From Anaerohalosphaeraceae bacterium (GTDB lineage: Bacteria > Planctomycetota > Phycisphaerae > Sedimentisphaerales > Anaerohalosphaeraceae): a DNA stretch of 64,000 nt. The notes below the pieces were generated by a model that did not search any database, was not told the DNA's origin, and was given only the letters and a program-made list of their open reading frames with translations. Position 1 is the stretch's first letter. Each line of letters opens with the position of its first letter. A program made the position numbers and the translations under genes. Below, piece by piece: positions 16,924 to 47,227 of the stretch. The stretch spans positions 1 through 64,000 of the forward strand of contig JBNRMN010000002.1 of NCBI GenBank assembly GCA_050309605.1, written 5' to 3'.

Positions 16924-16939
16924 GGGACAGAGTTTGGCA

Positions 16940-17464: not shown

Positions 17465-17506
17465 TATCGCATTTCACATTTGAAATTGGATATTTGAGAT
17501 TTCAGA

Positions 17507-18055: not shown

Positions 18056-18094
18056 ATCCTCTTTTTGGGATTTTTGGTTATTGCTGTGCTGCAT

Positions 18095-18520: not shown

Positions 18521-18671
18521 CGTTTCCCCTCTAAGGGAAAATTCCAAATCTTAAATTCCAAATCATAAACAAATCTGAAAATTAAAAACCGAAAACATTC
18601 AACACGTTTTGAATTTCTGATTTTTAAAATTTGACCTTGTTTAGGATTTAGTGCTTAGTGCTTGGAATTTT

Positions 18672-19097: not shown

Positions 19098-19179
19098 TGC
19101 TTTTCCTTGAATACGTGAATTTTAAATGAGCTTCACACGAAGCGTTTTTACTTTCGGCCTGAATGGTCAATCGTCAAAG

Positions 19180-19220
19180 AAAAAAGCCGACCGGCCGCGT
19201 GAGTGCGGACCGGCCGGCTT
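19180..19220 (-). terminator. Rho-independent terminator after the major pilin
   Basis: Long GC stem AAGCCG.CCGG-CCGC / GCGG-CCGG.CGGCTT followed by a T run on the minus strand. Confidence 0.7.
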
Positions 19221-19245
19221 ATTTTGACATTTCAGCTTTTAATTA

Positions 19246-19761
19246 TCAATCAGTAGTACCACCAGTAGTACCAAGTGCCGCACCGTTTTCAACAAGAGTG
19301 TCCTTTGCAGTCTTATTGGTTACGTCGCTGACGGCCAGATAGATGTTGCCTGTGCCTTCTACATAGACCCAGCCGACACCAGCCCCATCTGCAGCAGCAA
19401 CGGAGGAGGAGTTGTTCCAGGGATTTCTGGGAATCGACTGAACGTAAGGTCCATAAATAATGTTATTTTCAGCATCTTTTGAATCACTTGTGTTTCCAGC
19501 GGCATCTGAATATTGTTCGAGCCGATCTTTAAATGTTGCCTCGTCAAATGTTCCATGACAAGGAGGATTGTCATTGTGCTGGATTTTGTACAGCGAAATC
19601 TGCGACCGCAGCGTCTGCAAGCTGCTCATCGAGCTGTTGAGCTTGGCTTCGGTGCTGGCCTCGCTGAACTGAGGGATGACGATGGCCGCCAGGATACCCA
19701 GGATGACCACCACGATCAGAATTTCAACCAGTGTGAAACCTTTTTGTGTTCGTGTTCTCAT
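19246..19761 (-). CDS. Major (pseudo)pilin, GspG/PilA-like
   Basis: KGFTLVEILIVVVILGILAAIVIP; first gene of the operon with its own terminator. Confidence 0.9.
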   Translation of the reverse strand: MRTRTQKGFTLVEILIVVVILGILAAIVIPQFSEASTEAKLNSSMSSLQTLRSQISLYKIQHNDNPPCHGTFDEATFKDRLEQYSDAAGNTSDSKDAENNIIYGPYVQSIPRNPWNNSSSVAAADGAGVGWVYVEGTGNIYLAVSDVTNKTAKDTLVENGAALGTTGGTTD

Positions 19762-23690: not shown

Positions 23691-24578
23691 GTGTCGAGAG
23701 GGCGATTTTTCACACGACGCTCGGCGTCTGATTCCGTGCGGGTCGGTGCGCTGAGCCTGTCCGTTGCGGTTCATCTGGCGGCGTTGACCGTGCTGGGATC
23801 GGTGCATTTCCGACGTGATGCCGAGATGCCGGCTGAAGCGGTTTCGGCGGATATTTCCGTTCACGTGGTTGAACGGATTCTTGAATCGCCGCCGGCGCCC
23901 AAACCCAAGCCGAGGATTGAGCCGACACCTGCCCCGACCGTGGCGCGCCCCTTGCCCAAGCCCGCTGAGCCTGCGCCGCCGTCGCCTAAGCAGGAACCGG
24001 CACAACCGGTCGTTTCGAAACCGGACAGCCGTCCGGCGGATACGGTGTTTTTTTCCGGTACGACCGTCGCGGCCAAGCGAGTGTGCTATGTGGTGGACGG
24101 TTCGGGCAGTATGTTTGGGCTGATGTATCTGGTGCGCGAGCAGTTGCGTGAGTCGATTCTGAAATTGTCGGCCGAGCAGTCGTTTAATGTGGTGTTTTTT
24201 ATGGAAAACGGGCAGCTTTTGCAGGCGTTCGAGGGGACGCTTGAGAAGGCAAGCCCGTCGGCCAAGGCCGAGGCGCTGAATTTGCTCGGACGTATCCGGC
24301 CGGGAGGACAGACGATTGCCGAAGACGCGCTCGGGGCGGCTATGACGATGCGCGACAAAAGCGGACGCCGGGCGGAAGTGCTCTATTTTGTAACTGATGG
24401 GTTTGACCTGATGGACGGTGACGGTCAGGCGTTTATCCGACGGATTGACGCCCTTCGACAGTCGGTATCGCCGGGGACGGTCGTCCACACCATCGGCATC
24501 TATCCGGAAGCACGGGACAGCGGCATTCTGTCGCGATTGGCGCAGGTGTGCGGCGGGCGGTATATCGAGGTGAATTGA
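23691..24578 (+). CDS. Membrane-anchored vWA domain protein
   Basis: MIDAS VVDGSGSM, FVTDG, VHTIGI; Pro-rich linker. Confidence 0.8.
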   Translation: MSRGRFFTRRSASDSVRVGALSLSVAVHLAALTVLGSVHFRRDAEMPAEAVSADISVHVVERILESPPAPKPKPRIEPTPAPTVARPLPKPAEPAPPSPKQEPAQPVVSKPDSRPADTVFFSGTTVAAKRVCYVVDGSGSMFGLMYLVREQLRESILKLSAEQSFNVVFFMENGQLLQAFEGTLEKASPSAKAEALNLLGRIRPGGQTIAEDALGAAMTMRDKSGRRAEVLYFVTDGFDLMDGDGQAFIRRIDALRQSVSPGTVVHTIGIYPEARDSGILSRLAQVCGGRYIEVN

Positions 24579-24806
24579 GTGCCCACCGGCATCGTGTTTT
24601 GCGCCAGGGGATGTGGCTGTTGTATTCATTGGCATGGGTTATCGCGATACTGGTTTGCGCGACGCCGGTTAAATGGGAGAAAAAGCAAATTTTTTAAGAA
24701 ATTATGTTTTTTTCCTGTAACGGAGGTATAATAGAAACGTCCTCTTAAACAGGATGAACAGGACTTTTTACAGGACATTCTATATCCATCAATTAAGGAG
24801 ACGGTT

Positions 24807-27695
24807 ATGATATTTCCGAGAACCGGCATTATTGCATCCTTTTTTCTGATTTTTTCGATGGGTGCATTGGGGGATGTGCAATGGCTGCGTTATCGAACCA
24901 GTGAGGATGTGGGCCAGGAGGTGGGCGCCTCGGTGAACCGGTATTATCGCAGTTTTGAGTCGCAGCGTCCGGAGCACGTGCGGTGTCCGGAATTCAAATC
25001 CGACAGTCCCTTGTTTATTAAATGGAACACCCCGATGGACGGGCAGGGTTTTCGGTGGATCGCGTTGGATCGTTCGACGCCGTATGGACAATATGATCTG
25101 TTGTATATCGATTCAAACGGCGACGGGCATCTGGATGACGAGAAGCCGTATCAGGGGCGGCGAAGCGATCAGTATCGTATGGCCTTTCATCCGTTTCCTG
25201 TCTATCTGACCGGCGAGGACGGGCCGATTACCTATCATCTGGCGTGCCAATTCTACAGCTATGATGAGCGCAGTCGATATTTGATGATGTCTTCGGGCGG
25301 TTATTATGAAGGGACGGTGTTGATCGGCGGCGAACCGGTTGGGTGTGTTCTGGTGGATACCAACGGCAACGGGACGTTTGACGATACGGCTGAGGACTTT
25401 AACGCCGACCGGATTTTGCTGGGTGAAGGACAAAATCGGCGGGAGTATTTTGTGGGTCGCTATCTGGATTATGAAGGGACGTTGTATCGGCTTCAGATTG
25501 CACGCGACGGGGCGTTTGTGTCTCTTGCGGCTGCGCCCGACGTATCGTTTGGGGTCGTGCAGGTTCCCGAAGGTTTGACGAAATTCTCGGCCGGGGGTGT
25601 TAATGGAATGTATCACATGTCGCCGGAAAACGGGCACGTGCGCCTGCCGGAAGGGACGTATCGGGTGTATCAATGGGAGTTGGTTCGTCAGGACAAGGGG
25701 CAGGACTGGACCTTGCGGGGAAGCAATTTTCCGCGTCAGCAGAGTTTTACGGTCAGCGCCGATACGCCGGCGAGGGTGGCTGTCGGCGAGCCGGTATTTT
25801 CGCGGCTGTCGGTTTCCGAACGACAGGGAATCTATTCGATCAATCAGGAACTTCGGGGCAAGATGAACGAGCAGGTCAGTGTGCTGCGAAACGGTCGGCA
25901 GCCGCCGGCGCCGAAGGTGCATATTCGCAGCCAAACGGGCGCGTATGACCGGACGTTTTCGCTGGAGTATGGGTGAGGCGGTACCTGTTCGCTCTCGTGG
26001 CGAGAGCCGAGGAATATTGAGCGTCCGTATGTTATAACGCCGCTGGTCGAGGGGCCGTTTGATATACGGCAGATGCGCTATGTTTTTAAGCCGCTGCATC
26101 GTTCGGTACCGGTCGTCGGGCCGTGGATTGCCGAGGTTGCCGCCGATGAGGCGCTGCGCGTGGTGGTTGACGGTACGGGGCTGGTTGACCGTAACGGCGA
26201 CCGTTTGCCGGAGCATTTGACGCAAACCGAGACGCAGTGGATTGTATCGCAAGAGGAGGTGGGAGAAGGGCTTGTCTTTGATTTCGGCCAAGCGGTCGAG
26301 TTGGAAACGCTTCAAATCTGGAATTACAATGAGCCGGGCTATACATCGCGCGGCGTCGCGCAGGCGGATGTATCGGTCTGGACGTCTGAAGGCGACTGGA
26401 AGACGGTTTTGCGCGGCGCGTCGCTGCAAGAAGCCGAAGGGACAGACCAGTATGATGAGCCGACCCTGCTGAGGCTTGTCCCGACGCGGGCCGAGAAGGT
26501 GCGGCTGAGCAATCTTAAGCCGTTTGCCGATGAGGGGTTTGTCGGTTTGTCGGCGATCCGGTTTTATGAGAAGGCCACGTTGGCGGCCTGCAATCCGCAG
26601 CCGCCGGGAGGGGCATCGCTGCCGTTCAGTTCTCAGGCGACGTTGTTCTGGACGCCGGGTAAAGAGGCGGCTGCGTATGATGTGTACGCCGGAATCGACG
26701 GTCAAGAGCCGGCGTTTTTGGGTCGCATTGCGGAATCTCAGGTCAAACTGGTCGGGCTGGTCGGCGAACGAACATATCGGTGGCGCATTGATGCGGTACA
26801 AACGAATGGTACCGTTACGCAAGGGCCGCTGTGGTCGTTTTCGGTTGAGCCGGGCCGCTGTGTGGCGCATTGGCCGTTTGATGAACACGAAGGCCAAACG
26901 GCTGCCGATTCGCTCGGTCAGGCGGCCGGTGTGTTGAGAGGTGAACCGGCGTGGCTGATTGACGGCGGACGGATTGACGGGGCCATCGAGCTGGACGGTC
27001 AGCGTGATTTTGTCGAAACGCCGGCGCTGCATTTGAACACTGATACGCTGACGATGACTGTCTGGCTGCGGGCTGATCCGCCGCCGAATCAACTGACCGG
27101 CGTGATGTTCTGCCGCACGCCTTCGACGGTGGCGGGAATTCACTTGAGCGGTACGAATCTGCGGTATCACTGGAATGATCTTCCGGAAAGTTATAATTGG
27201 GACAGCGGACTGAGTCTTCCGACGGATGGCAGGTGGGTGTTTGCCGCCCTGACGGTTACGCCGGAGTCGGCCAGGCTGTACCTGCATCATGACGGTGAGC
27301 TGAAGACAGCGGAAAATCGTCTCGTTCATTCCGTTCAGCCCTTTGACGGGCCGTTGACATTGGGATGTGACGGCGGGATCAATGACCGCAATTTCAAAGG
27401 TCGTATGGATGATGCGCGGGTGTATAATTATGCGCTGACTGCTGAACAGATTCTTGCACTGGCCGAGGGACGTGAGCCGGCGGATTACGCTTCAGATGCG
27501 GCGCCGTCGCTGGCGCTGGCCGGTGCGGAATTGATCCAGCGCGACGCGGATTTGAAGGCGATCGCCGAGGCTCGGCAGCGCGAGCGACAAGCGGCTCCGC
27601 CGGCCGAGGTGCGCCGACGCAATATCCTGCCGGTGCTGGTGATTGTGGCGTTGATTGCCGCCGCGGCGGTGGTCTTGGGCAGGAAGTCCGCATAA
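24807..27695 (+). CDS. Candidate exported selenoprotein (962 aa, Sec390) with galactose-binding-like, Fn3-like and LamG domains and a C-terminal TM anchor
   Basis: ORFs 24807-25976 and 26073-27695 are in one frame, separated only by TGA 25974-25976 (YG-U-GGTCSLSWREP); SECIS-like hairpin follows; signal peptide; LamG motifs VAHWPFDE and FKGRMDDARVYNYALT. Confidence 0.8.
25991..26007 (+). promoter_or_regulatory. Bacterial SECIS-like hairpin 1
   Basis: GCTCTCG-TGG-CGAGAGC, after a 14-nt spacer from the TGA. Confidence 0.8.
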
Positions 27696-27819
27696 ACCGC
27701 AGAATAAGCAGTGAAACGTCAGATTTCACAAACTAAACAGAGAACGTTCTATTATGCGGCACGATCCTTCCGGCCGTATTGAAGGGGGATCGTGCCCGTG
27801 CTGCAAGGGAGGTTTCAGG

Positions 27820-30258
27820 ATGCGTCAAGTCATAAGCAGAAACGGGTGGACGTGGGTTATGGTTGTGTCGGCGGTACTCGGTGCGGCTGAGGCGAAAACG
27901 CTCAAAGGCACGGTCACCGGTCCTGACGGCGCACCGGTGGACGGCGCGGCGGTGAGTGTCTATGCGGCCCAGCTTAAGATTGAATCGCTTGCTTTTGAGG
28001 TTCAGCCGGTCGGTCAGACGACGACGTGTTCGTCGGGACTGTTTTCGGTGGAGACGGATGTTCAGATGCTGTCCAGCGAGGGAGGCTGGCTGTTTTTTGC
28101 GGAAAAGCCGGGCCTGTCAATCGGTTTTTCTTTGCTGCAAGACTTCTCGGAGGACAGCACGTCGCTTCAACTGACCGCGCCGCAGACATTGGCCGGACGG
28201 ATTGAGGATATTCACGGTAATGCGGTTGCCGGGGCCGGGGTGCGTCTGCTGGTTTTATCGGTTCCGGGTGAGCGTGAGTGCTATACGCTGGGGCTTGAGC
28301 CGATCCCGTTTTTTGCTGCGGAAACGGATGCGCAGGGGCGATTTGAATTCGCGAATCTGCCGGAAAACTGTACGGCTGAACTCTTGGCCAAAAAGGCGGG
28401 ACTGGCGACCTTTCATACGCTGACGTCCAACATCAATCCGCAAACGGGGCTGAGTTTTTCGGTCGGGCAGGAAGATATTGTCCTGACCTTATCCGAGGCG
28501 TGTCGAATCAGCGGTATAGTGACCGACCAGGACAATCAGCCGGTGGGTCATGTGCAGATTGTGGCGATTGAAGCGGACCATCCGCAGATCGGGATTTTTA
28601 CCCGGAATCTAACACGCGCCGAGGCCGACGGGACATTCAGCTTCGGCGGCCTGTCGGCCGGGTCATATCGACTCAGTGTGATTGATGCGGACTGGATGTC
28701 CGAGCCGGTTACCGTGGAGGTCAAGACGGAGGTGGGTGTGCCGCTGAAGGTCGTCAAGGGCAGCCTGCTGACAGTGACGGTGGTGGACGGCGTTTCCAAT
28801 CAGCCGGTTGGATCGGCTCAAGTCAATGTGAGTCCGCAGGATGAACGCAGCAGTTTCTCGTTCGGCAGGGGCACGACCGATCCGGAGGGCAAAGTGCAAA
28901 GTCGCGTTTTGCCGGGGACGTATAATGTGTACGTCAGTGCGCCCGGATATCGCAGCAGCCGCAGTGTCGCGGCGGTCGTGGAAGACGGCAAGACCAATGA
29001 GATCACGATTATGCTGGGCGCAACGGCCCGCATTGCCGGAACGGTTACCGATTCCGACGGGCGGCCCGTTGCAGGGGCACAAGTCTTTGTGCTCCCCTTT
29101 TCGGGTAATGTGCGGGACGCCATACAGACAACCGACGAAAAGGGGCACTTTACCCTTGGGTGGGATCCGGAGCAGATCAGTTGGGTACAGGGTGAATTCT
29201 ATCTTGCCGCGATTGACAAAAGCAGCAACCGTGCGGTGATTGAGCCGATTGACGCGGACACCACGGACATCCAGCTTACCCTTCAGCCCGGTCTGACGAT
29301 CACCGGCAAAGTGACCGGCCCGGACGGCGAATCTCTGGCCGGGGCGGGGGTGAATGTGCAGTTTCGCGGCTCAAACTGGTCTTCGACGCTTCAGGGATAC
29401 ACCGCCCAAACCGACCGGGACGGGATGTATCGTATTGCCGCCATACCGCCGCAGCAGCGGTATTACTTATTCATCAGTGGGCCGACCGGTTATGGCACCG
29501 GGTCGGTTAATCTGGAGTTACCGACGGACGGCGATGTGGTTACCGCATCCGATACGGTGCTGAAATTGGCCAATCTGTCGGTATCCGGCAAGGTGGTTGA
29601 TGAGGACGGCAATCCGCTGGAGGGGGTGAATCTGCATTGTTACGGCTCCGGCCAGCCCAGCGCCCAGGCGCGAACCGGCACGGATGGGACATTTGTGTTT
29701 GATGCGGTCTGCCAAGGCGATCTGTCCATTCAGGCCAATTATCAAAAAGACGGCGAGTATATGTATTCCAATGTCCGAACCGAAGGCGGAGCGCAGGAGG
29801 TCACGATCGTCCTGGGCCCGCAAAGCTCCGGCGGCGGCTATGTGCCGCGACGGCCGGCCCCGCTGGTCGGCAAGCTGCTGCCGGATTTGTCGGGGTACGG
29901 CATTGAGCTTGAGAGGCAGGCCGGGCCGGTGCTGGTATGCGTCTGGGACTGGCGGCAGCGGCCGAGCCGTTATATGGTGCGGCAACTGGCCGCGCGGGCC
30001 GGTGCGCTGGCCGAGCGGTCGGTACAGGTCGTGCTGCTCAATGGCGAATCGACGGAACGTGAGCCGCTCGATGCGTGGCTGGCTGATTTTGACATTCCGT
30101 TCGTCTGCGGCGTTATCGCCATCGACCCCGATAATTCTCGATTTAATCTCGGCGTCCAGGCGATGCCGTGGCTGATTTTAACCGATGGTCAGCGCAAGGT
30201 CATTGCTGAAGGGTTTGCGCTGTCCGAATTGACTGATAAGCTGGGCGGACTGCAATAA
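27820..30258 (+). CDS. Exported protein with carboxypeptidase-regulatory-like repeats and a C-terminal thioredoxin-like domain lacking CxxC
   Basis: Repeated ISGxVTDxDGxPVAGAxV...TDxxGxF units; C-terminal LVGKLLPDL...VCVWDWRQRPSR...GVQAMPWLILTD. Confidence 0.75.
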   Translation: MRQVISRNGWTWVMVVSAVLGAAEAKTLKGTVTGPDGAPVDGAAVSVYAAQLKIESLAFEVQPVGQTTTCSSGLFSVETDVQMLSSEGGWLFFAEKPGLSIGFSLLQDFSEDSTSLQLTAPQTLAGRIEDIHGNAVAGAGVRLLVLSVPGERECYTLGLEPIPFFAAETDAQGRFEFANLPENCTAELLAKKAGLATFHTLTSNINPQTGLSFSVGQEDIVLTLSEACRISGIVTDQDNQPVGHVQIVAIEADHPQIGIFTRNLTRAEADGTFSFGGLSAGSYRLSVIDADWMSEPVTVEVKTEVGVPLKVVKGSLLTVTVVDGVSNQPVGSAQVNVSPQDERSSFSFGRGTTDPEGKVQSRVLPGTYNVYVSAPGYRSSRSVAAVVEDGKTNEITIMLGATARIAGTVTDSDGRPVAGAQVFVLPFSGNVRDAIQTTDEKGHFTLGWDPEQISWVQGEFYLAAIDKSSNRAVIEPIDADTTDIQLTLQPGLTITGKVTGPDGESLAGAGVNVQFRGSNWSSTLQGYTAQTDRDGMYRIAAIPPQQRYYLFISGPTGYGTGSVNLELPTDGDVVTASDTVLKLANLSVSGKVVDEDGNPLEGVNLHCYGSGQPSAQARTGTDGTFVFDAVCQGDLSIQANYQKDGEYMYSNVRTEGGAQEVTIVLGPQSSGGGYVPRRPAPLVGKLLPDLSGYGIELERQAGPVLVCVWDWRQRPSRYMVRQLAARAGALAERSVQVVLLNGESTEREPLDAWLADFDIPFVCGVIAIDPDNSRFNLGVQAMPWLILTDGQRKVIAEGFALSELTDKLGGLQ

Positions 30259-30320
30259 GACGACAGCACAGCAGGGGTGTTTTATTCGGCTGTTGATGTG
30301 ATTATGTTCAGGGAGTTGAG

Positions 30321-31475
30321 ATGAGACAATGGGTTGTTTTATGGGTCGCTTTCGCGGCGGCCGGGGCGATGGCGCTGACGGTTTCGGAGCAGACGCTTGA
30401 TCTGTTTGGTACGTCCGAGCCGGAGGATCCGAATGCCGTGGTTCTCGCTGATCCGCCCTACACCGTCAAGGTGTCGCGCACGGGCAAAGTGCTGAATGTG
30501 GCGATTGAGACCGCGTCGCGTGAGCAGGCGGAATTGCTGTTCGGCGCGCATTATGAACAGTCGCCGAGACTGTCGATTTATAAGGGCGATTTGCTGCTGG
30601 CATCGGGGCAGTTCGCCTTTGGGTGAGGCGGCGTCTGTGCGTACTCGTGGCGAGTACCGATGTATGCTTATGGCACATTCAGAATCGAGACGGAAGTGCC
30701 GACCGGCGAAGGCGAACCGATCCGCGTCGAGCCGACGACATATTATTTCAATCCGCTGTATCATGCGTCGGGGTTTGTCTATTTCGTTCCGGTTGCGGCG
30801 GCGTTTTTGTTCCTGAAAGAAAACCGGCGACCGAAGGCGTTTTTGATTCTGGCGCCAATGCTGCTGGTGATGGGGATGTGGAGAGGGTTTTCCGGAGTGA
30901 TGCATTTTCCTGAAGAGGCGGTCAGCATGTTAAATTCAGTGGTTATGGCCTTGCTGGCGGGCCTTTCCGTTGTCTGGCTTCTGGGTGAGCGGATCGGCCA
31001 TCGCCATCGGTTGGCAACGACTTTTCTGGCGGGCGGTATTATGCTGGGGTGCTGTGCCCTGATGCTGGTAGAAATCTTTTCCTCGGACTATGTGTTTCAA
31101 ATCGCATTTTTCGGTGTGATCAGTGCGGCGGTTATCCTGTCGGGCTTACTTGTCGGCGGTTTCCTGAGCCGGAAGCGATTTGGCCCGGTGCGTTTTTTGC
31201 TATGGTTCGGTGTGGGCATTTTATCGGCGACTTTTGTGCTGTTTTTTGTTTATTATGCGATTTTGACATTTTCCTATTTCAGTGCAGATTTGTTCTGGAT
31301 GTTGTTGGGCGTGATGCTGACTTATGCCGCAATCTATTGGGTAGGCGTCTTGCCGTTTCTGGTGCTGTTTTTCGTCAATGACTTTTGGCGGCAGCGGTTT
31401 ACGGCGGTCATGGGATTGGGCACTGTAGCCGTATCCGAGACGGAAGCTCACGAGGCGTTTACGTCTGACTTCTGA
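30321..31475 (+). CDS. Candidate membrane selenoprotein (384 aa, Sec102)
   Basis: ORFs 30321-30626 and 30660-31475 are in one frame across TGA 30624-30626 (FG-U-GGVCAYSWRVP); SECIS-like hairpin; signal peptide plus about 7 TMs. Confidence 0.8.
30641..30657 (+). promoter_or_regulatory. Bacterial SECIS-like hairpin 2
   Basis: GTACTCG-TGG-CGAGTAC, after a 14-nt spacer; compensatory changes relative to hairpin 1. Confidence 0.8.
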
Positions 31476-32323
31476 TCGCCCAGTTCCGTCGGTTCGTCCA
31501 GCAGGGTGGCCGGCTTCAGTGCGCCGGGGCCGCATTTTGTGCATTCCAGACAGCGGATGCAGTGGTCGGCGTTGGGGGTCTTATCGGGCTGGACGCCGTA
31601 GCGGCACAGGGTTCGACAGCGGCCGCATTGGGTGCATTGGTGTTCTTCCAGGTTCAGTGTAAACAGAGAAAACCGATTGAAAAAGCCGAAAATCGCACCC
31701 AGCGGGCACAGAATTCGACACCACGGGCGGATGGTAAAAAAGATGGCGGCGACAAAGACGACGATGATGGTGATTTTGAGGGTGTTGGGCCAGGGGATTA
31801 CGTCGCCGGCGACGGCGGCGGAAACCACATCGGGCAGGGCCTTTTCCAGCCCGCCGGCCGGGCAGATACGGCAGATAAACAGCGGGTGGCCTTCGCCGAA
31901 AAAGTAGGGGACGGCCAGGACTGTCCCGATCAGTACGACATAGCGAAAATGCCCCATCCAGCGGGGGATTTTGAAACGCGGCGCGGGGACCTTGGCCGCG
32001 ACATCCTGAAGCAGGCCGAACGGACACATCCAGCCGCACACCAGCGAGCCGAGCATCACGCCGAACGCGATCAGCAGTCCCACGGCAAAATACGGAAACA
32101 GGTGCAGCGCACTGAATTGGGCAATGACGCCGATGGGGCAGCCGAACAAGGCCAGCGGACAGGCATAGCAATGGAACACCGGTCCGCACACGGTGTGCAT
32201 CCGCAACCCGAACGGATCGAGCCAGACCAGCAAAAAACCCGTCTGTACCCACAGCCGATGCGGCAGGAGTTTTTTGAAAAACCGCGACAGCGGCGATGAC
32301 GATGAATTGACCGTGGACACCAC
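31448..32323 (-). CDS. Membrane 4Fe-4S binding protein (NapH/MauN-like)
   Basis: CYACP, CGWMCPFG, CRICPAG, CRILCPLG and two CxxCxxCxxxC motifs. Confidence 0.88.
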   Translation of the reverse strand: MVSTVNSSSSPLSRFFKKLLPHRLWVQTGFLLVWLDPFGLRMHTVCGPVFHCYACPLALFGCPIGVIAQFSALHLFPYFAVGLLIAFGVMLGSLVCGWMCPFGLLQDVAAKVPAPRFKIPRWMGHFRYVVLIGTVLAVPYFFGEGHPLFICRICPAGGLEKALPDVVSAAVAGDVIPWPNTLKITIIVVFVAAIFFTIRPWCRILCPLGAIFGFFNRFSLFTLNLEEHQCTQCGRCRTLCRYGVQPDKTPNADHCIRCLECTKCGPGALKPATLLDEPTELGDQKSDVNAS

Positions 32324-32327
32324 AGCC
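32309..32327 (-). promoter_or_regulatory. Bacterial SECIS-like hairpin 3
   Basis: GGCTGTGG-TGT-CCACGGTC (8 bp with 2 G-U pairs); loop starts 22 nt after TGA 32343-32341. Confidence 0.6.
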
Positions 32328-32331
32328 TCCT

Positions 32332-32577
32332 TTAACTGCCTCAGGTCGGGCAGGCTTCGGGGGGCTTGCCCGTGTAGGTTAACTGCAATCGACCGTCGTC
32401 GGTACGCTCCAGCCCGCCGATGCTGACTTCCTTCATCAGCCGCGTTTCGGGCGTGGCCAACCCTTTGTCGTTGTGTTCCGAAAAGACCGGCTGCGTGTGA
32501 AACTTCAGCCCGAAGGCCATCAGGCCGGCGCCGATAAACAGCAGCACAAATACGATTTTGATCTTGAAGGACTCCAT
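32332..32577 (-). CDS. Small single-TM candidate selenoprotein ending in C-P-T-U-G-S
   Basis: Track ORF ends ACPT-TGA; readthrough gives a CxxU motif, then GS-TAA; SECIS-like hairpin at matching spacing. Confidence 0.65.
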
Positions 32578-32670
32578 AATATTTACGCTATCATAGCACA
32601 CCGGAATGTATTTGTAAACAGCGTTTGGCGTACAAAATGATTGGCGGCCAGTCAGGATCGGCAGCCAAAT

Positions 32671-32703
32671 AAAAACGCCCGCGGACTTTGTCAGCGGGCG
32701 TTT
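32671..32703 (-). terminator. Terminator after xerC
   Basis: AAACGCCCGC...GCGGGCGTTT stem with a T run on the minus strand. Confidence 0.7.
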
Positions 32704-32723
32704 GAGGCTGTATCTAAAAAGAC

Positions 32724-33734
32724 TTATGTTGTCGGTTTGATTTCCAGCGGATGGGCGTTTTGATATTGTTCCTGCATTCGACTGGTGGTGATATGCGTAT
32801 AAATCTGGGTTGTCGATAACGATTGGTGTCCCAGCAGTTCCTGAACGCTTCGCAGGTCGGCACCGTTGTTGAGCATATGGGTCGCGAAGCTGTGCCGCAG
32901 CGTGTGCGGGCTGATGTTCGGGTCCAGACCCGCCTCGATGAGGTATTTGTCCATTTTTCGGCGGACGCTGCGGGCACTCATCCGTTTGCCGTGCTTGTTG
33001 GCAAACAGCACTTTACTGTCAAAGCCCGGATCATTGGCCAGACGGCGGCTGCGAAACTCCAGATAATGTTGAATGCTCTGCAGCGCTGTCAGACCAATCG
33101 GGCAAATCCGTTCTTTTTTGCCTTTGCCGCGGACGTGAATCACTTCGCCGAGGAAATCCACATCTTCCATATTCAGGGCCACCAGTTCGCTGACCCGCAT
33201 CCCCGTGCTGTAGAGTACTTCCATCATCGCTCGGTCGCGGGCACCCAGCCATGTGGTGGCCGGCGGTGTGTTCAGCAGCCGCTGAACCTGCTCGTATTCA
33301 AGAAACTTGGGCAGTTTTTTATCTTGTTTGGGTGTTTTGATATTGGTGGCCGGATTGCTGGACACATAATTGCGCTTGACGAGAAATTTGTAAAAGCTGC
33401 GCACCGTGGCCAGTTTGCGTGCGGTGGTGGATTTGGAATAGGCGTGGGAGTTCAATTCCGCCAGAAAACGGCGTATCGTATTGACGTCCGCAGCCTGCAG
33501 CAGGGTATCGATCTGGGTTTGTGCCTGGGTCTGTGTTTGTGTCGCGACCGAACCGTTCTCGGCGGCCCAGGGATTTTGTCCGTTGTCGTCGGGGCCGTGC
33601 GCGTCGGCGTGGGCGGCCAGAAAGGCGCTGTACTGCTCCAGGTCAGCCTCATAACACTTGGCGGTATGCTCGGAAAAATGTTTTTCAAATTTCAGATAAT
33701 TGACAAAATCCTGGATAATCGCCGAGTTGTCCAT
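32724..33734 (-). CDS. xerC: Tyrosine recombinase XerC
   Basis: LYSTGMRVSEL, GKGKKER, SPHTLRHSFATHML, LLGHQSLSTTQIYTH. Confidence 0.9.
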   Translation of the reverse strand: MDNSAIIQDFVNYLKFEKHFSEHTAKCYEADLEQYSAFLAAHADAHGPDDNGQNPWAAENGSVATQTQTQAQTQIDTLLQAADVNTIRRFLAELNSHAYSKSTTARKLATVRSFYKFLVKRNYVSSNPATNIKTPKQDKKLPKFLEYEQVQRLLNTPPATTWLGARDRAMMEVLYSTGMRVSELVALNMEDVDFLGEVIHVRGKGKKERICPIGLTALQSIQHYLEFRSRRLANDPGFDSKVLFANKHGKRMSARSVRRKMDKYLIEAGLDPNISPHTLRHSFATHMLNNGADLRSVQELLGHQSLSTTQIYTHITTSRMQEQYQNAHPLEIKPTT

Positions 33735-34317: not shown

Positions 34318-35262
34318 TCAGGGAATCTTAAAAAATTCCGTGCCTGACCGTATATCGGACACAATTTGGCCTGTTTTCAAAAGGGCGTCCAGCAGCGGAC
34401 GCACTTGATCGGGGCTGAGGGACAGCCCGATGCCGATATCCTTCAATGAACAGGGATGACGACGGAGCATGGCAAGAACCGCTTCGGTGTTGCCGGTGAG
34501 GTCTGCCGAAGCGGCAGGGCCTTGATGACGACTGAAATCAGCAATGATTTCGGCTTGCGGATGCAGTTTTGGGGCGATCTGCTCCAATTCCTGAGGCGAA
34601 ACCGGCAGCGCCTCGGCGTGGGTGGTCGGACGCGCAGCGGTGTTGAGCTGGACTTTGTCGGGGCGGATTTTTGCGATGAGTCGGGCGATGTTTCGGATAC
34701 GGTCCTCGTCGGTGTTGATTCCCCGACAGAAAAAAACCTCCAGCCAGATTTGGCCGGCGTATTCGTCGCGAAACCGGCATAAACCATTGATAAAAAGCTC
34801 GAAATTCAGGTCGGGATGCGGGTTGTTCAGGCGGCGAAAGGTCGCTTCATCGCCGGCATCGAGCGAGGGCAGTACGACATCCGCCTTGGCGCAGTCCCGC
34901 CGAACCTCCGGCTGATACAGCAGTGTGCCGTTGGTGATGACGGCGGCGGGTATGTCGGTCAGCTTTTTGATGCCGTCGATGATGACGCCCAGTTCACTGT
35001 GCAGGGTCGGCTCGCCGGAACCGCTGAGGGTGATGTAGTCGGCGGACAGTCCCTCGTCTAACCGTTGGCGCAATTCAGTCAGCACCGCATCGGTCGGCAC
35101 ATAGACTTTGCGCTCCAGCGTCAGCGGGGCGTCTTTGCCCAGTTGGCAATAGAGGCAGTTTTGGGTGCAGGTCTTCATCGGGACGATGTCCAGCCCCAGG
35201 CTTTGGCCCAGACGACGCGAACGAACAGGCCCGAACAGATAGTGATAGGTTGACTTGGCCAT
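34318..35262 (-). CDS. Radical SAM protein
   Basis: GPVRSRRLGQSLG, CTQNCLYC, SGSGEPTL. Confidence 0.9.
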   Translation of the reverse strand: MAKSTYHYLFGPVRSRRLGQSLGLDIVPMKTCTQNCLYCQLGKDAPLTLERKVYVPTDAVLTELRQRLDEGLSADYITLSGSGEPTLHSELGVIIDGIKKLTDIPAAVITNGTLLYQPEVRRDCAKADVVLPSLDAGDEATFRRLNNPHPDLNFELFINGLCRFRDEYAGQIWLEVFFCRGINTDEDRIRNIARLIAKIRPDKVQLNTAARPTTHAEALPVSPQELEQIAPKLHPQAEIIADFSRHQGPAASADLTGNTEAVLAMLRRHPCSLKDIGIGLSLSPDQVRPLLDALLKTGQIVSDIRSGTEFFKIP

Positions 35263-36092
35263 TATGATTTTGGATTGCGAATGAGTTGATGGATACGGCC
35301 GCACATCGAGACCAGTGATTCCACTTCGTCCAGCGGGAGCATACAGGCCGCATCGCAGAGGGCATTGGCCGGGTCGGGGTGGATTTCCATAAACAAGGCG
35401 TTGGCGCCTGCCGCCGTTGCAGCGCGGGCCAATATCGGGGCCATATCGGGCGTGCCGGCACTGGCCGTGCCCAAACCGCCCGGCCGCTGGGTGCTGTGTG
35501 TGGCGTCAAAGACGACCGGACAGCCGATTTGCTGCATCAGCGGGATGGCAGTCATATCGTTGACATTGCGGTTGTAGCCGAAAAACGTGCCCCGTTCGGT
35601 CAAGAGAATCTTGTGGTTTCCGGTGGAACGTACCTTTTGGACGCAGTTTTTCATCTCTTCGGGGCTGACGAACTGACCTTTTTTGATATTGACGGGCTTT
35701 TGTGTCCGGCCGCAGGCGACCAGCAAGTCAGTTTGACGACATAAAAACGCCGGAATCTGAAGACAATCGACCACCGAGCCGGCGGCCTCGGCCTGGGCCG
35801 GTTCGTGGACATCGGTCAGGACGGGCAGGCCCGTTTTTGAGTGCACGTCATTCAGTATGGCAAGGCCTTTTTCCAGGCCAGGCCCGCGAAAACTGTCAAT
35901 ACTTGAACGATTGGCCTTGTCGAAACTGGCCTTGAAGATCACGCCGACACCGGTGCGCTCCCGAATGCCGAGTAGCGTCTCGGCGATCCGCAGGCACACA
36001 TCGCGGCTTTCTATCACGCACGGTCCGGCAATGATAAACAGCGGCTCATTGAGACCGACCTTGATTTGTCCAATGTGAAAGGATGAATTCAT
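35262..36092 (-). CDS. kdsA: KDO-8-phosphate synthase
   Basis: IAGPCVIES, KASFDKANRSS, QIPAFLCRQTDL, NIKKGQF. Confidence 0.95.
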   Translation of the reverse strand: MNSSFHIGQIKVGLNEPLFIIAGPCVIESRDVCLRIAETLLGIRERTGVGVIFKASFDKANRSSIDSFRGPGLEKGLAILNDVHSKTGLPVLTDVHEPAQAEAAGSVVDCLQIPAFLCRQTDLLVACGRTQKPVNIKKGQFVSPEEMKNCVQKVRSTGNHKILLTERGTFFGYNRNVNDMTAIPLMQQIGCPVVFDATHSTQRPGGLGTASAGTPDMAPILARAATAAGANALFMEIHPDPANALCDAACMLPLDEVESLVSMCGRIHQLIRNPKS

Positions 36093-39265: not shown

Positions 39266-39811
39266 CTAATTTTTATTATTGCATTGTGGTTCCTGGGTAA
39301 GCCGGAGCATTTCAAGAATCGCGTTTAATCGAAATTTAATCTCTGTGAAATTGTGCAGCATCATCAACAAGTCAGAAAGTCTGTTTTTTTGGCTGTTTAT
39401 TACCTGAAGCGCGGCTTGGTCTTGTTCAGACAGCTTTTCGCCCTGACTTAGCCGTGCTTCGGCGTCCAGAATAATCGTCCAGGCCTCTTGGTATTTCTCG
39501 GCTATGGGTTTTCGGATTGTTTCAATATCAGTGTTTACAAGCGTTTCTGCGGCTTTTTGAAACTGATCGTCGCCGGTGATAAGCCAATGAAGATCAATTT
39601 CTAATGCCTCTGAAATTTTCAAAAGCACATACGGGTCGGGTAGATTTTCGCCATTTTCATAGCGAGATATTTGGCTGGAGCTTGTAAAACCCGCCATTTT
39701 AGCAAGTGCCACCATACTTAACTGTTTAGCTTTTCTGGACTTATGGAGTCTTTCGCAAAACCCATTCAGAAATTTTGAGAAATCTTCTTTTTTTCGCTTG
39801 CTTTGTTGCAT
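39266..39811 (-). CDS. XRE/cI-like HTH repressor
   Basis: LSMVALAKMAG...QISRYENGENLP...DLHWLITG; divergent from the transposase operon. Confidence 0.85.
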   Translation of the reverse strand: MQQSKRKKEDFSKFLNGFCERLHKSRKAKQLSMVALAKMAGFTSSSQISRYENGENLPDPYVLLKISEALEIDLHWLITGDDQFQKAAETLVNTDIETIRKPIAEKYQEAWTIILDAEARLSQGEKLSEQDQAALQVINSQKNRLSDLLMMLHNFTEIKFRLNAILEMLRLTQEPQCNNKN

Positions 39812-39871
39812 TTCTCTCAGTACATTAGACGATACAATGCGTAACGCTCATTGTTTTTTAAGGTTTTAGTT

Positions 39872-40069
39872 ATGGCAAAAAACGTAAATCTTCGTGATCG
39901 GGACGTAATGGCCTTAATCAATGCCAGGGCAGAGGCCGAAGGGCGGACGGCCCAAAATGCCGCCAGTCAGACGATTCGCGAGGCGCTTATGCCGATTTAC
40001 GGCCCGAAACGTCGTTCATTCAAACAGCGAATCATTGAAAAGTCAAACGGAAATGGCTCAATGGATTGA
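39872..40069 (+). CDS. Small DNA-binding protein (Arc/RHH-like; Ner/Cro position)
   Basis: 65 aa; beta-helix-helix-like pattern; first gene of the early operon. Confidence 0.5.
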   Translation: MAKNVNLRDRDVMALINARAEAEGRTAQNAASQTIREALMPIYGPKRRSFKQRIIEKSNGNGSMD

Positions 40070-41979
40070 CATTTCGACAGCCGCTGCGCGGCTGGGGGTT
40101 ACGGAGCGGGCTGTCCGTAAGCGTTGTCTGGTCGGTGATTTGCCCGGCGCTGAGAAGCGTAATGGGATCTGGCGGATACCTGTAACCGCCGACGCGCGGC
40201 TGGCAGGGCGTCCTGCCGTCGACGTGCGGGTTGATGCTGATGACCTGGCAAGAATTCCAAAACCAAAGTTAGACGAGGCGATTCGGCGGGCAGGCGTTGT
40301 CGCGGCTTTTGAGAGGTTCTCGCGTGAACACGTCCGGGCCGGCGGGCTGCGAACTGAGGCCTTCGAAATATTCGCGTATCAAAATAATCTGGCTGTCGGC
40401 ACGCTGCGGCGATGGGTTTCACGGCACAAGCAACACGGGGTTTTGGGCCTGGTGGATTGTCGCGGCGGGTCGCGAAATAGCGAGACTATCAGTCCGGAGG
40501 CCTGGGAGTTTTTCAAGAGTCTCTATCTCGATCCGCGCCAGCCGTCAATCCGGCAGTGCCTGCGGATGACCGTTCACCATAATAAGAGGGAGAAGTTGGG
40601 CTGGACAATACCATCGTACGGCGCGCTTTGCCGATACATAGACAAGTATTTGCCCTTGCCGGTTCGGGTGCTGCATCGTGAGGGGCAGGCCGCCTATGAG
40701 GCCAAGTGCGCGCCTTATATTCAAGTCGATCTTTCGGAAGTCGAGCCGGGCAGCGTCTGGGTCGGCGATCACCACCAGTTTAATGTGTTGATTCAACACA
40801 TGGGCAAATGGGTGCGGCCCTGGCTGACGGCCTGGATGGATGCGCGCAGCCGCGCGCTGGTGGGCTGGCAGGTCTGTTTGCAGCCGAACCAGACGACGAT
40901 CCTGACGTCGTTTCGGGATGCGGCGAAAAAATATGGCCCACCGGATGGGGTTAAGATCGATAATGGCCGCGACTACGATGCACGATTGTTTACCGGCACG
41001 ACCAAAAAACGCCGGAAGGCCCTGAGTAAGGGTTATCTTGACGAAGATACGGTGTCCGGCCTCTACGGTCTTTTGGGTGTCGAAGTTTCTTTTGCCATTC
41101 CTTACCATCCTCAAAGCAAGTCCATCGAACGGTTCTTTGATACCGTCGATCAACAGTTTTGCAAGTTTGTTCCGACGTATTGCGGCAAAGACACCAAGCG
41201 GAAGCCGGAAGCGCTTAATGATTATCTCAAGTCGTCGTCGGCGGTTGAGGCGGCTTATACGCTTGAGACCTTCTCGAAGGCCTTTGCCGATTACGCGGCT
41301 GTTTATAATACCCGGCCGCACTCATCGCTGGCCGGCCAGACGCCGCTGGAAGTGCTCGAATCGCGCGAGTCGAAGCGCGTCGTTTTGGATGATGTGCTGG
41401 ATCTGTTGTGCCGTGTCTGGATAGACGCAAAAGTCACCAAGAACGGTGTACGCATAAATGGACTTTATTTTGGGCAATACGACCCCCCACATCATGGCGC
41501 TGCAAGGCAAAGCTGTGCGTGTTAGCTACGATCCGAACGACGCGGGGGTCATTTTCATTTACAACGAAGATTGGAAGTTTGTTGCGCGGGCCGAGAGCAA
41601 TCGGCTGGTCGCCTACGGGCAGCCCGGGGTCAGCGACGGCTCTGTCCGTGCGGCCATGCGGCAAAAGGCCCGCGCGGCAAAACAGCTTCGTCAGCAGCGG
41701 GACGCGGCGCGTACTCGCGCGATGGACGTGGCGGCCCTGGCGATCGAGGCCCAGGCCGCCGAGACCCGGCCGGCGCCGGCGGCCAAGCCGCCGAGGATTC
41801 GGGCGGTCAAAACCGTTTTGGACGGTCAGCTCGACGCGCATAAAGTGGCTGCTGGGCCGTCGCCGTCGCGAGAGTCGTTCTGTCTGGAGTGGGACATCGA
41901 ACCCAAAGGGCTAAAACCGCCGCCTGTTATTGATCTGGGGCTGGACGACGATTTCTGGGAGGATGCCGATGTTGGGTGA
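40053..41979 (+). pseudogene. MuA-like DDE transposase, frameshifted in a C6 run at 41483-41488
   Basis: N-terminal HTH; WVGDHH, KIDNGRDY, KSIERFF (DDE); C-terminal domain (VRVSYDPND) continues in the +1 frame. Confidence 0.85.
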
Positions 41980-43090
41980 TCTCCGCGACAATCTCGAACA
42001 GGATTCACGACTGGTGCTGGTTCACGTGCCGGATGTCGGCGACGCTGCCGCGCTGGCGGCGTTCTGTGCGGAGGTCAAACGGTTTTTGGCTGAACAGGGT
42101 GTCTCGCAGACTCGGCTGGCCAAGTCTATCGAATTGTCGCAGACGGCGGTCGGTCAGTTTCTTAACGGAAAGTACGCCGGCGATAATCAGGCGCTGGCGG
42201 AGAAGATCGGCTGCTATGTCAATGCGGTTTGGCGGCGTCAGCGGCGCTCGGCAGGCGCGCCGGAGTTTGCGGAAATTGGCGTCGCGGAGCGGATTTTTGG
42301 GTTGATCCGACGGGTCGATTCGTTCAGCGATGTCGAAGGGCGGATCGGCGTGATTATCGGCGACGCCGGCAGCGGCAAGTCCGCGTGTCTGCGGGCGTAT
42401 GCCCGGGCGGACGCGGCGGCGGTCTATATCAGCCATGATTCGGCCCAGAAGATTACCGGCCTGCTGGATGCGATTACCCGCGCCAGTGGTGGAGACGTGG
42501 CCGTTAACGCCTCTTTGTCGCTGGCACGGGCGCGGCTGGCCGAGGTCATGAAGCATAAACGTCGGCTTATTTTGATCGACGAGGCCAGTTCCTTACGGGC
42601 GAAAGACCTGGATAAATTGCGGTCGCTGCTTTGTGTGAAGTGCGGCTGTCCGTTGATCCTGGCCGGCAACAATGATCTTTTGCGGACGATCCAGGAGAAT
42701 GCGGACAAGACCGGCTATGCCTCTTTGGATCAATTTAACAGCCGTTTGATCGGCGTTTTGAATTTGGATGAATTGGCCGCCGGCGGCGACGGCGGGCCGT
42801 TGTACAGTGCCGAGGACATTCGCCGACTCTACGAATACGGCGGCATTCGGCTGACGCCGGACGCGGTGGATGCCCTGGGGCGCATTTGCCGGACGCCGCA
42901 TTCGGGCAAGCTGCGAACGTGTCGAGACATCGTTCGTGCACTGCACAGCGCAACGCAGGTCATCGAGACCGGCCAGATCAACGCGGCGCTGGTCTGGGCG
43001 GCGATTGAGCAGTTGGGCCTGTCGGCGGCGGACTGGCTGCCGACTGCGTGCGGTCAGCCGGTAGTCAAAAGGGTATCAAAAATTGGGTAA
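41969..43090 (+). CDS. MuB-like AAA ATPase with N-terminal HTH
   Basis: VGQFLNGKYAGD, Walker A GDAGSGKS, Walker B ILIDEA; follows the transposase. Confidence 0.88.
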   Translation: MLGDLRDNLEQDSRLVLVHVPDVGDAAALAAFCAEVKRFLAEQGVSQTRLAKSIELSQTAVGQFLNGKYAGDNQALAEKIGCYVNAVWRRQRRSAGAPEFAEIGVAERIFGLIRRVDSFSDVEGRIGVIIGDAGSGKSACLRAYARADAAAVYISHDSAQKITGLLDAITRASGGDVAVNASLSLARARLAEVMKHKRRLILIDEASSLRAKDLDKLRSLLCVKCGCPLILAGNNDLLRTIQENADKTGYASLDQFNSRLIGVLNLDELAAGGDGGPLYSAEDIRRLYEYGGIRLTPDAVDALGRICRTPHSGKLRTCRDIVRALHSATQVIETGQINAALVWAAIEQLGLSAADWLPTACGQPVVKRVSKIG

Positions 43091-43116
43091 TTTTAGTTTT
43101 TTTGGGAAGAATAGAT

Positions 43117-44004
43117 ATGGCCGACAAAGACATTAACATTCATATTCGCGCCAAGGGCGCTGAGGACGCCAAGCGGCAGATCAGCGGCGTGGCCCAGACA
43201 ACCGGCCAGGTCGGCGACAAGGCCCAGGAGACCGGCAGCAAGAGCGAGCAGGGGTTCGGCAAGGTCAAGGGCGCCTTGACCGCGTTGATGGGGCCGCTGG
43301 GCTTTGCCGGGCTGTTTGCCTTGCTCGGTGCCGGGGCGCGGAAGGTGGCGGCGTTTTTTGACGATCTGGCGCGGCGGGCGGCGATGAAAGAGTATATGCA
43401 AAACCCTGTGATTTTGGCGTCGCATACGCATCGGCTGGCGGACGGGCGGTCGCCGGTGGTCGGCAAAGTCATTGACTATACTTTTACGGGGCGCGACCTT
43501 GTGATCACGGTCGAATTTGCTCAGACGGAGCTGGGTGAGGAGTACTGGAGACTCTACAAGGACAAATTTCAACGGGCGTTCAGTATCGGCTTTATCGGGC
43601 GGTCGGCGCCGGTCGCCGAGGTGATGGACGGGCGGCGGGTGCGTGTTTGGAAAGATATTGAATTGCTGGAGATTTCCTGTGTGGCCGTGCCGGCGAATCC
43701 GGCGGCCCTCAGCAAACAGCGGCTCTCCTGGGGCCAGCGAAAAAAAAACGAACGGGAGCAAAAGCTTTTGGAAAACCCGGTACGGCTGGAGCGATTGTTT
43801 GCTCGTTATGAAAAGCTTCGCAATGAGCAGATACGGACGGCGGGGCTGGGGTATTGCGAGGACGTCAGCGAAGAGGTGCTCAGGAAACATTTTTCAGATG
43901 CTGAAATCTCGATGATTCACGATGTTTGCCGCTATGATCCGGCGTGGGGGTTCGGCGATCCTGAAGAGCTGAGCTTTGAGGAGGATTATGCGAAGTACAT
44001 TTGA
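43117..44004 (+). CDS. HK97-family prohead protease with a tape-measure-like N-terminal extension
   Basis: NPVILASH, AFSIGF, LLEISCVAVPANPAA. Confidence 0.8.
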   Translation: MADKDINIHIRAKGAEDAKRQISGVAQTTGQVGDKAQETGSKSEQGFGKVKGALTALMGPLGFAGLFALLGAGARKVAAFFDDLARRAAMKEYMQNPVILASHTHRLADGRSPVVGKVIDYTFTGRDLVITVEFAQTELGEEYWRLYKDKFQRAFSIGFIGRSAPVAEVMDGRRVRVWKDIELLEISCVAVPANPAALSKQRLSWGQRKKNEREQKLLENPVRLERLFARYEKLRNEQIRTAGLGYCEDVSEEVLRKHFSDAEISMIHDVCRYDPAWGFGDPEELSFEEDYAKYI

Positions 44005-44201
44005 GTTTTCTGTTGGTGCGGACGGCATCACGGGGCGGCGCCCCTGGGTTTGTCGCGTGGCTGCGGTGCTGCTGCGATGCCGTTTAACGCGATGCGCCTA
44101 TTTTCTCCAGTCGGCGGCGGAGTGCCGGGCCGCCGCCGATTTTTGACCCGGCACGATTGCTCGGTAAAGCGTTTTTAATTTCGATTTAAGGATATATTAT
44201 T

Positions 44202-46516: not shown

Positions 46517-46563
46517 TCGTTCAAAGTATATAACGTTCACATTGATAAGAAAGAGAGGTTTGT

Positions 46564-47136: not shown

Positions 47137-47227
47137 TTGGCGGCCGGCTTTTTGAGCGGCTTACACCGCGTATTGTGCCGGCGGCATGGTAAAAGGCCTT
47201 AAAGTGTAGAAAGGATGTTGCTTATTA

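Follow-up and report, generated by a model that had tools for sequence, protein, structure and literature searches.

Probable recoding of a UGA two codons ahead of the stop of a small planctomycete membrane protein, with a candidate SECIS hairpin on the initiation region of a NapH-like polyferredoxin gene

The DNA considered here is the first 64,000 nucleotides (hereafter the window) of contig JBNRMN010000002.1 from an Anaerohalosphaeraceae bacterium of the Planctomycetota (assembly GCA_050309605.1), in which a small minus-strand open reading frame (ORF) closes with Cys-Pro-Thr and TGA directly upstream of a gene for a polyferredoxin resembling NapH and MauN. This TGA (32343-32341) probably encodes selenocysteine (Sec), the product being a selenoprotein of the form CPTU-XX-stop and the hairpin at 32327-32309 its selenocysteine insertion sequence (SECIS). 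From the locus alone, called site C below, the reading would have about one chance in three. Two further TGA codons in the window, sites A and B, have the same hairpin geometry together with signs of read-through, and UGA is therefore very probably decoded as Sec in this organism through a stereotyped SECIS, which site C matches. The C-terminal CPTU with its SECIS, proposed in an initial annotation of this DNA, is thus left undecided by its own locus and takes its backing from the TGAGGC codons at A and B.

The small ORF starts with the ATG at 32577 and runs for 78 codons (MESFKIKIVFVLLFIGAGLMAFGL...TYTGKPPEACPT, ending ...KPPEACPT directly ahead of the TGA), after which the minus strand reads TGA (32343-32341), GGC, AGT and TAA (32334-32332), in agreement with the succession CPT-TGA-GGC-AGT-TAA given by the initial annotation. 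Sense codons between the in-frame UGA and a later stop are therefore present, but being only two they are trivial when taken alone; read through, they give Sec, two residues and a stop, an arrangement of the UXX-star type. The -10 hexamer of a promoter-like site upstream (TTTACA-17-TATGAT, Table 1) stops 13 nt short of the ATG, so that the mRNA would be near-leaderless. The GTG at 32601, which would give a protein of 86 residues, was rejected as the start because it falls within this promoter-like site (32618-32590), and ATG 32577 is accordingly the start adopted here.

The Shine-Dalgarno (SD) sequence of the polyferredoxin gene, AAGGAGG (32332-32326), overlaps the final A of the TAA and, with its last two G, the outermost stem bases of the 5' arm, and two in-frame GTG codons of that gene (32323 and 32320) sit in the 5' arm and loop; the coordinates thus bear out the earlier description of an SD running into the 5' arm of a hairpin that holds the start codon. 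The arms GGCUGUGG (32327-32320) and CCACGGUC (32316-32309) form eight pairs, two of them G-U, around a UGU loop (32319-32317), with an energy of -11.2 kcal/mol, and the hairpin is the minimum free energy (MFE) structure in contexts of 40 and 43 nt. The model of the bacterial SECIS (bSECIS), in the constraints quoted from PMC13188914, has a loop of 3-9 nt, a stem of 4-16, a G in loop position 1 or 2, a spacing of 16-37 nt and an MFE of at most -7.5. Hairpin C satisfies every one of these with its three-base loop, G in loop position 2, 8-bp stem and spacing of 21 nt. At the DNA level the string TGA GGC AG[T/C] TAA AGGAGG and the hairpin are kept in both related genomes (loci L001 and L002). The hairpin is thus present in 3/3 DNA sequences, the changes being one stem pair (U-G to U-A) and one loop (UGU to UGG); it is the L002 copy that carries the UGG loop, as do sites A and B. 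Conservation over the junction reaches 93-97%, against 57-90% for its surroundings.

Sites A and B were found with a template drawn from site C (a G-UGK-C triloop 21 nt after the UGA on a contiguous stem of at least 7 bp), applied to the 2311 TGA triplets on both strands of the window. Only three triplets carry it, A (25974), B (30624) and C itself, while windows simulated with a first-order Markov model had on average 0.12 sites, none of 300 having as many as three; loosening the template to a spacing of 20-22 nt and a 5-bp stem adds one weak site. All three terminate long ORFs, and all three read TGAGGC, a context present at 32 of 2312 TGA triplets; elsewhere GGC follows a terminal TGA in one case out of 34. 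The residues around the UGA match selenoprotein motifs, namely CxxU at C and U-x3-C at A and B.

The two halves of gene A are a 389-aa part with a signal-like N terminus and a 540-aa downstream part with LamG and F5/8-type-C domains, which on our reading would have no signal peptide of its own and a hydrophobic end resembling a C-terminal anchor. The 32-codon linker between them holds no in-frame ATG, GTG or TTG, and its three differences between the window and L001 are all third-position and synonymous in the read-through frame (AGG/AGA, GTT/GTC, CAG/CAA). The hairpin of site A (GCUCUCG-UGG-CGAGAGC, 25991-26007) lies about 65 nt from the next start. Gene A is likely to be a new selenoprotein. 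At site B a secreted-looking ORF of 101 aa is joined to a multi-pass membrane ORF of 271 aa, and the hairpin (GUACUCG-UGG-CGAGUAC, 30641-30657) ends 2 nt ahead of the ATG chosen by gene callers. Across their TGA codons A and B have in common the in-frame peptide [YF]G-U-GG[TV]C[SA][LY]SWR[EV]P (G-U-G-G-T-C in A, G-U-G-G-V-C in B), found nowhere else in the DNA examined. Their stems differ by two compensatory pair changes that cost Leu/Tyr and Glu/Val replacements, and since pairing is kept despite these replacements selection acts on the RNA. In a fixed register from the TGA, 35 of 35 stem cells pair in A, B, C and the two relatives of C, a figure that is partly so by construction, the sites having been chosen for their shape. 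A covariance model built from the three sites recovered only its own training sites, the next best match scoring 12.5 bits (E 0.67), and Rfam has nothing at gathering score, with only four weak non-SECIS matches in 24500-33000. Both A and B are stored in databases as split 'hypothetical proteins'.

Some further observations concern these stretches. The copy of gene A in L001 loses its frame about 76 codons past the TGA (~5593-5620, minus strand), where an indel and divergence mark the end of the aligned stretch. Antisense to gene A runs an Arg-rich ORF of 738 aa (25113-27329, minus strand), without a family match and almost certainly spurious, although its length exceeds that of every other ORF in this stretch and can make gene lists go astray. 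Two unannotated ORFs of 253 and 269 aa (62188-63999, minus strand) lie in one frame across a TGA (63198-63196) that does not have the hairpin signature; they may be antisense artefacts.

Table 1. Positions in the window of the features of sites A, B and C
Feature	Position	Strand	Remark
Small ORF, TGA read as Sec, 81 aa	32332..32577	-	tail ...TYTGKPPEAC76-P-T-U79-G-S; true stop TAA 32334-32332 in the Sec reading
Candidate Sec codon TGA, context TGAGGC	32341..32343	-	same codon and context in L001, L002
Hairpin GGCUGUGG-UGU-CCACGGUC, candidate SECIS	32309..32327	-	loop begins 21 nt after UGA
Shine-Dalgarno AAGGAGG of NapH-like gene	32326..32332	-	identical in L001 and L002
NapH/MauN-like polyferredoxin (Fer4_5), 290-291 aa, 16 invariant Cys	31448..32323	-	start GTG 32323 or 32320
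Promoter-like TTTACA-17-TATGAT, extended TG	32590..32618	-	10/12 matches; 1 site vs 0.7 expected
Site A: ORF 24807-25976 (389 aa) + TGA 25974-25976 + 32 codons + ORF 26073-27695 (540 aa)	24807..27695	+	one frame, 962 aa
Site B: ORF 30321-30626 (101 aa) + TGA 30624-30626 + 11 codons + ORF 30660-31475 (271 aa)	30321..31475	+	one frame, 384 aa

The small protein, taken in its 81-aa read-through form, belongs to no Pfam and no NCBIfam family (no match at E <= 0.1). A word-based search gave 19 close relatives, a profile search against 1.84 billion representatives gave 235 at E <= 0.001, of which 150 are listed, and a second profile search brought 96 more sequences. Among 263 family sequences, 260 finish exactly at C-x-[T/S] (CPT in 235, CPS in 16, other forms in 9), the three exceptions being two cut-off sequences (P0006 and P0138) and a non-member (P0384); in none of the 260 is the motif internal to a longer protein. 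Of the 235 matches 150 are listed, and every one of these except P0138 is matched at its final or penultimate residue. Across an alignment of 147 members, the Cys of the C-terminal motif is the only invariant residue, and 111 of them have no second Cys. All members have one N-terminal hydrophobic helix; Lys and Arg are more frequent ahead of the helix than behind it in 84 members, the reverse holding in 34, while acidic residues average 0.4 before and 2.5 after, a charge distribution which suggests that the N terminus is inside and the C terminus outside.

An AlphaFold2 (AF2) model of the small protein, with a mean predicted local distance difference test (pLDDT) of 90, shows a membrane helix at 2-26, a small beta-rich domain with strands at 28-43 and 56-66, and an extended tail; a fold search with it gave no match at E <= 0.001, the ESM Atlas held no usable match, and PDB sequence searches with the small-protein and polyferredoxin families found none either. 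Three family members compared with plasmids by tblastn gave no match, and no paralog is present in the window or the related loci examined. A scan of genome contigs, made with close-relative patterns only, returned two true loci, L001 and L002; a third, L003, was discarded as a chance match of 19 residues with a profile E of 0.016. The names attached to the clusters looked up are those of metagenome-assembled genomes (MAGs) only, from Phycisphaerales, Sedimentisphaerales, Anaerohalosphaeraceae and Pirellulales. In the literature searched, including passages of PMC13188914, PMC12013277 and PMC13326102, the family is not described.

The downstream protein has the Fer4_5 domain (PF12801, 49.4 bits in two stretches against a gathering cutoff of 22) but scores below cutoff with the dedicated models TIGR02163 for NapH/MauN (66.4 bits, cutoff 213.05) and NF007013 for NapH (52.2, cutoff 234). 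Its homologs number 1852 with a cutoff of E <= 1e-10, and identity to it is 53-98% in the best 120; the few that are named come from MAGs of Phycisphaerales, Sedimentisphaerales, Anaerohalosphaeraceae, Planctomycetaceae and one Verrucomicrobia. Sixteen Cys are invariant across 118 sequences. The protein has two CX3CP motifs (C95/C99-P and C201/C205-P) and two C-terminal four-Cys ferredoxin motifs, and besides these six more invariant Cys (C45, C51, C54, C61, C150 and C153) which, from our reading of the helices, would face outward. The AF2 model of this protein is too poor for use (mean pLDDT 58). GTG 32320, with a spacing of 5 nt from the SD, is the likelier of the two starts.

That the small protein has this NapH/MauN-like protein as its partner, as the initial annotation held, is supported by an adjacency kept in two gene neighbourhoods: in L001 the neighbours are those of the window, and in L002 they are different, with a T2SS-F-like gene upstream and ArgJ downstream. 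Moreover, four database pairs of small protein and polyferredoxin have longest contigs of equal size (P0014/P0184 11129, P0011/P0186 1890, P0023/P0257 6491, P0153/P0297 4271), which fits co-location even for members 35-41% identical to the window protein. In L001 the NapH-like gene has an in-frame TAG (2146-2148) where the window has the TGG of an invariant Trp, the database call being truncated to 230 aa; either a pseudogene or an assembly error may account for it.

The way in which the partner has been annotated also bears on the stop codon of the small ORF. In L002, Thr is encoded by ACA just ahead of the TGA, which creates an overlapping ATG (ATGA, L002 8234-8237), and ORF finders then add 8 codons to the NapH-like gene; an artefact of this kind also exposes the TGA in database homologs. 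In four further clusters (P0226, P0224, P0210, P0202 and members) the called xTG of the partner overlaps the stop of the small ORF, which must then be TGA since no other stop permits the overlap; this sampling is biased, as only TGA can create such a start, and it is confined to T78 codons whose third base is A, G or T. The L-R dipeptides in the clusters of P0189 and P0277 are compatible with TGA and TAA alike. Within one 90% cluster the partner extension differs (RQLK vs TD[IL]R) and the protein behind the SD is unchanged; since the two codons after the stop thus differ between close relatives, the tail after Sec would be variable and the TAA within UAAGGAG constant.

Several considerations weigh against Sec at site C, and much of what follows would be expected if the TGA were an ordinary stop. 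In this alternative, which we regard as rather unlikely, the Cys-Pro-Thr-COOH tail would dock onto the polyferredoxin or bind a metal, the hairpin would sequester the start codon for classical translational coupling, and the TAA would be a back-up stop within an extended SD (UAAAGGAGG). TGA is the commonest stop of the window (38 of 66 listed ORFs), and no tRNA-Sec, selA, selB or selD is found in its 64 kb. According to a 2026 review, nearly all selenoproteins have Cys homologs (PMC13188914), while the search for relatives ending in CPTC, suggested by the initial annotation, came back empty, neither the 260 family sequences nor the 150 listed of the 235 profile matches including a Cys-for-Sec homolog. 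The hairpin is unremarkable in stability when compared with shuffled sequences (z -1.64 for C, 15 of 200 shuffles doing as well; -0.25 for A and +0.33 for B), and in a 63-nt context of site C a different fold wins (z -0.39). As many as 7.9% of the 2311 TGA triplets satisfy a contiguous-stem version of the bSECIS model, and 1.5% are as stable as hairpin C. The start region of the NapH-like gene is the third most structured among 66 gene starts, as coupling predicts, and conservation of the SD accounts for the K-E read from it in the over-extended N termini of polyferredoxin homologs in databases. No compensatory change occurs inside hairpin C in the three DNA sequences compared, which are close relatives (85-92% protein identity) and make the conservation of the TGA weak evidence; the SD, the start codon, the coding sequence and the conserved C terminus could alone account for the conservation of the junction. 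As for A and B, the template was drawn from site C itself, and being paralogous to each other the two amount to about one independent witness.

What an ordinary stop leaves unexplained is the identity of geometry, loop and UGAGGC context with two TGA sites that show read-through. At A the next start is some 65 nt away from the hairpin; what A, B and C have in common is how far the hairpin sits from the TGA and not from a start, which speaks against a hairpin devoted purely to coupling. In addition, the lone invariant Cys would be without a partner thiol in 111 of the 147 aligned members, and the fixed C terminus of 260 of the 263 sequences would need another cause. Among the relatives no homolog ending at CPT with TAA or TAG was found and the hairpin is kept in all three sequences, with only close relatives readable as DNA. 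Sec thus remains the preferred reading of site C. The family may lack Cys forms because it is bound to lineages that use Sec or because it cannot do without Sec; having no Cys homolog and a Sec two codons from the stop, such a family would be missed by the methods that look for Sec/Cys pairs, as these are described in PMC13188914. Sec is used by only 21.5% of sequenced bacteria (PMC5029168), some planctomycetes among its users (PMC4807772).

Very unlikely, in our view, is the alternative in which UGA is read through at all three sites by a near-cognate tRNA for Trp, Cys or Arg under stimulation by the hairpin, so that short products would appear alongside long ones. The evidence of read-through at A and B is indeed silent on the residue inserted, which may be Sec or another, and the lack of Sec genes in the window would suit this alternative. 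However, the geometry agrees point by point with the bSECIS model, and CxxU and U-x3-C are surroundings of the selenoprotein type; to our knowledge, no programmed read-through element of such a type is established in bacteria. Least probable of all is that the stretch behind the TGA is conserved as coding sequence of the NapH-like gene from an xTG overlapping the TGA, an idea which finds some support in the ATGA of L002, where the ORF call starts, in several database homologs called from the xTG position and in the single T/C difference of L001, synonymous in the partner frame too, but which is opposed by the unusual CTG at this position in the window and in L001, by the call of about 105 of 118 homologs from a downstream MV(x)MVKK start just past the conserved SD, and by an extension that differs within a 90% cluster in which the rest of the protein is the same.

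If the TGA is read as Sec, the product would be a membrane protein of 81 residues with a single span, probably oriented with the N terminus in the cytoplasm and the C-terminal domain beyond it, and with a tail that ends in the CxxU motif C76-P-T-U79-G-S, Sec lying three residues from the true stop TAA. With only two codons after Sec, the SECIS would fall outside the small ORF; it would coincide with the ribosome-binding site and the initiating GTG of the polyferredoxin gene. While UGA occupies the A site, SelB.GTP.Sec-tRNASec would bind the hairpin, which begins 13 nt past the UGA; Sec79, Gly and Ser would then be added, with release at the UAA, 9 nt further. A ribosome at the UAA would have to open the hairpin, which starts 4 nt past the UAA, and would thereby free GTG 32323/32320 behind a perfect SD, while termination already at the UGA would keep the hairpin shut, possibly SelB-bound. 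Synthesis of the polyferredoxin would in this way keep pace with that of the full-length selenoprotein. The layout of start-sequestering coupling is found in the sequence, with the TAA overlapping the SD and the two GTG codons lying within a hairpin kept in all three sequences. Sec-gated coupling to the polyferredoxin, drawn from this geometry only, is put forward tentatively.

With similar reserve, A, B and C may be seen together as one system, in which the hairpin of C would have a dual role as SECIS and as lock of the SD and start, a lock perhaps strengthened by bound SelB, an island of 8 kb would encode three extracytoplasmic selenoproteins, and a large CPTU family without Cys forms would extend beyond it. 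This family would comprise at least 235 clusters at 50% identity, and the two other proteins of the island would carry the new G-U-G-G-x-C motif. In A, B and C alike, Sec would occupy a part predicted to be extracytoplasmic; together with the putatively outward-facing extra Cys of the polyferredoxin, these placements are the reason for proposing, as a weak inference, an outward relay of electrons, thiol-selenol exchange or metal from the polyferredoxin to the CPTU tail.

Site C resembles the bacterial SelB/SECIS recoding of the fdhF type in having a UGA followed by a stem-loop with a small apical loop bearing G-[G/U], the loop lying 16-37 nt after the UGA (here 21) and the energy being at most -7.5 kcal/mol, as given in PMC13188914. 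In contrast to a SECIS of this type, the hairpin of site C lies beyond the stop of its own ORF, over the SD and start codon of the polyferredoxin gene, and no Cys-form homologs of the small protein are known. Closer in arrangement are the UXX-star and KCU-star selenoprotein families of NCBIfam (NF041114, NF041211 and NF033934; Table 1 of PMC13188914), in which Sec stands two or three residues from the C terminus and the SECIS must reach past the stop, 'star' being taken from the names to mean stop; the small protein, however, matches no NCBIfam model and differs in its membrane anchor, its CxxU and its fixed polyferredoxin neighbour. A SelB-binding hairpin a few nucleotides from an SD is found in the 5' untranslated region of E. 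coli selAB, where, according to PMC13449736, binding of SelB.GTP.Sec-tRNASec to a SECIS-like element represses translation of the following gene. The E. coli element decodes no UGA, whereas the hairpin of site C would combine the decoding of a UGA before it with control of the start codon that it covers.

The polyferredoxins of the COG0348 type also include CcoG, NosR and PceC. With NapH/MauN the downstream protein has in common the Fer4_5 domain and the CX3CP and ferredoxin motifs; it differs in scoring below their cutoff and in its six extra invariant Cys, four of which lie in an N-terminal part unlike NapH, and no nap, mau or nos genes stand beside its gene. For the selenoprotein A family (GrdA), we know of few or no Cys forms. 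GrdA, the protein of glycine reductase, is a small redox carrier with CxxU (Table 1 of PMC13188914), but it is a soluble protein of the cytoplasm with an internal Sec, and it has no sequence similarity to the small protein. If Sec holds at these sites, what would be new is the family itself, the coincidence of a SECIS with the initiation region of the next gene, and the G-U-G-G-x-C proteins.

A large planctomycete membrane family, annotated 'hypothetical' and cut at C-P-T, would then consist of selenoproteins that every pipeline has missed. There would be a natural bacterial SECIS outside its ORF and on the next initiation region, making it possible to test whether Sec insertion gates the synthesis of a partner. 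The acceptors of NapH-like membrane electron conduits are mostly unknown, and the system would point to a relay outside the cytoplasm, based on selenol redox chemistry or on metal, that receives its supply from such a polyferredoxin. Finally, the organism-specific SECIS signature, UGAGGC-N18-UGK in a hairpin, could be used to search for further selenoproteins of Phycisphaerae.

The surroundings of the three sites are of mixed character. A XerC-type recombinase (343.9 bits, cutoff 335) is encoded upstream of the small gene. For the radical SAM gene at 34318-35304, a role in maturing the C-terminal Cys was weighed and set aside, as this gene is not near the pair in L002 and matches no selenobiotic maturase. 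Between genes A and B, a plus-strand gene (27754-30258) encodes a protein of 834 aa with about seven CarboxypepD_reg repeats, which matches TIGR04134, 'radical SAM-associated putative lipoprotein', with 65.7 bits (cutoff 39.8); its last ~130 residues look by eye like a thioredoxin/TlpA-type fold without CxxC. The stretch 39266-45551 is mobile or prophage-like, with an RstR/DicA-like repressor, an IS481-like transposase, an HK97-type prohead protease and a major capsid protein. It is followed on the plus strand (46064-49669) by an oxidative-stress cluster of the anaerobe type, consisting of a PerR-like regulator, rubrerythrin, thiol peroxidase, a flavorubredoxin-like protein and desulfoferrodoxin, after which come Rnf/Nqr-like subunits, Rex and a NuoF-like flavoprotein. 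At the other end, the minus strand of 3169-19761 holds a large type II secretion/type IV pilus cluster (GspF, GspE/PilB, secretin, PilM and pseudopilins) with a PhoR/PhoB-like two-component pair inside it.

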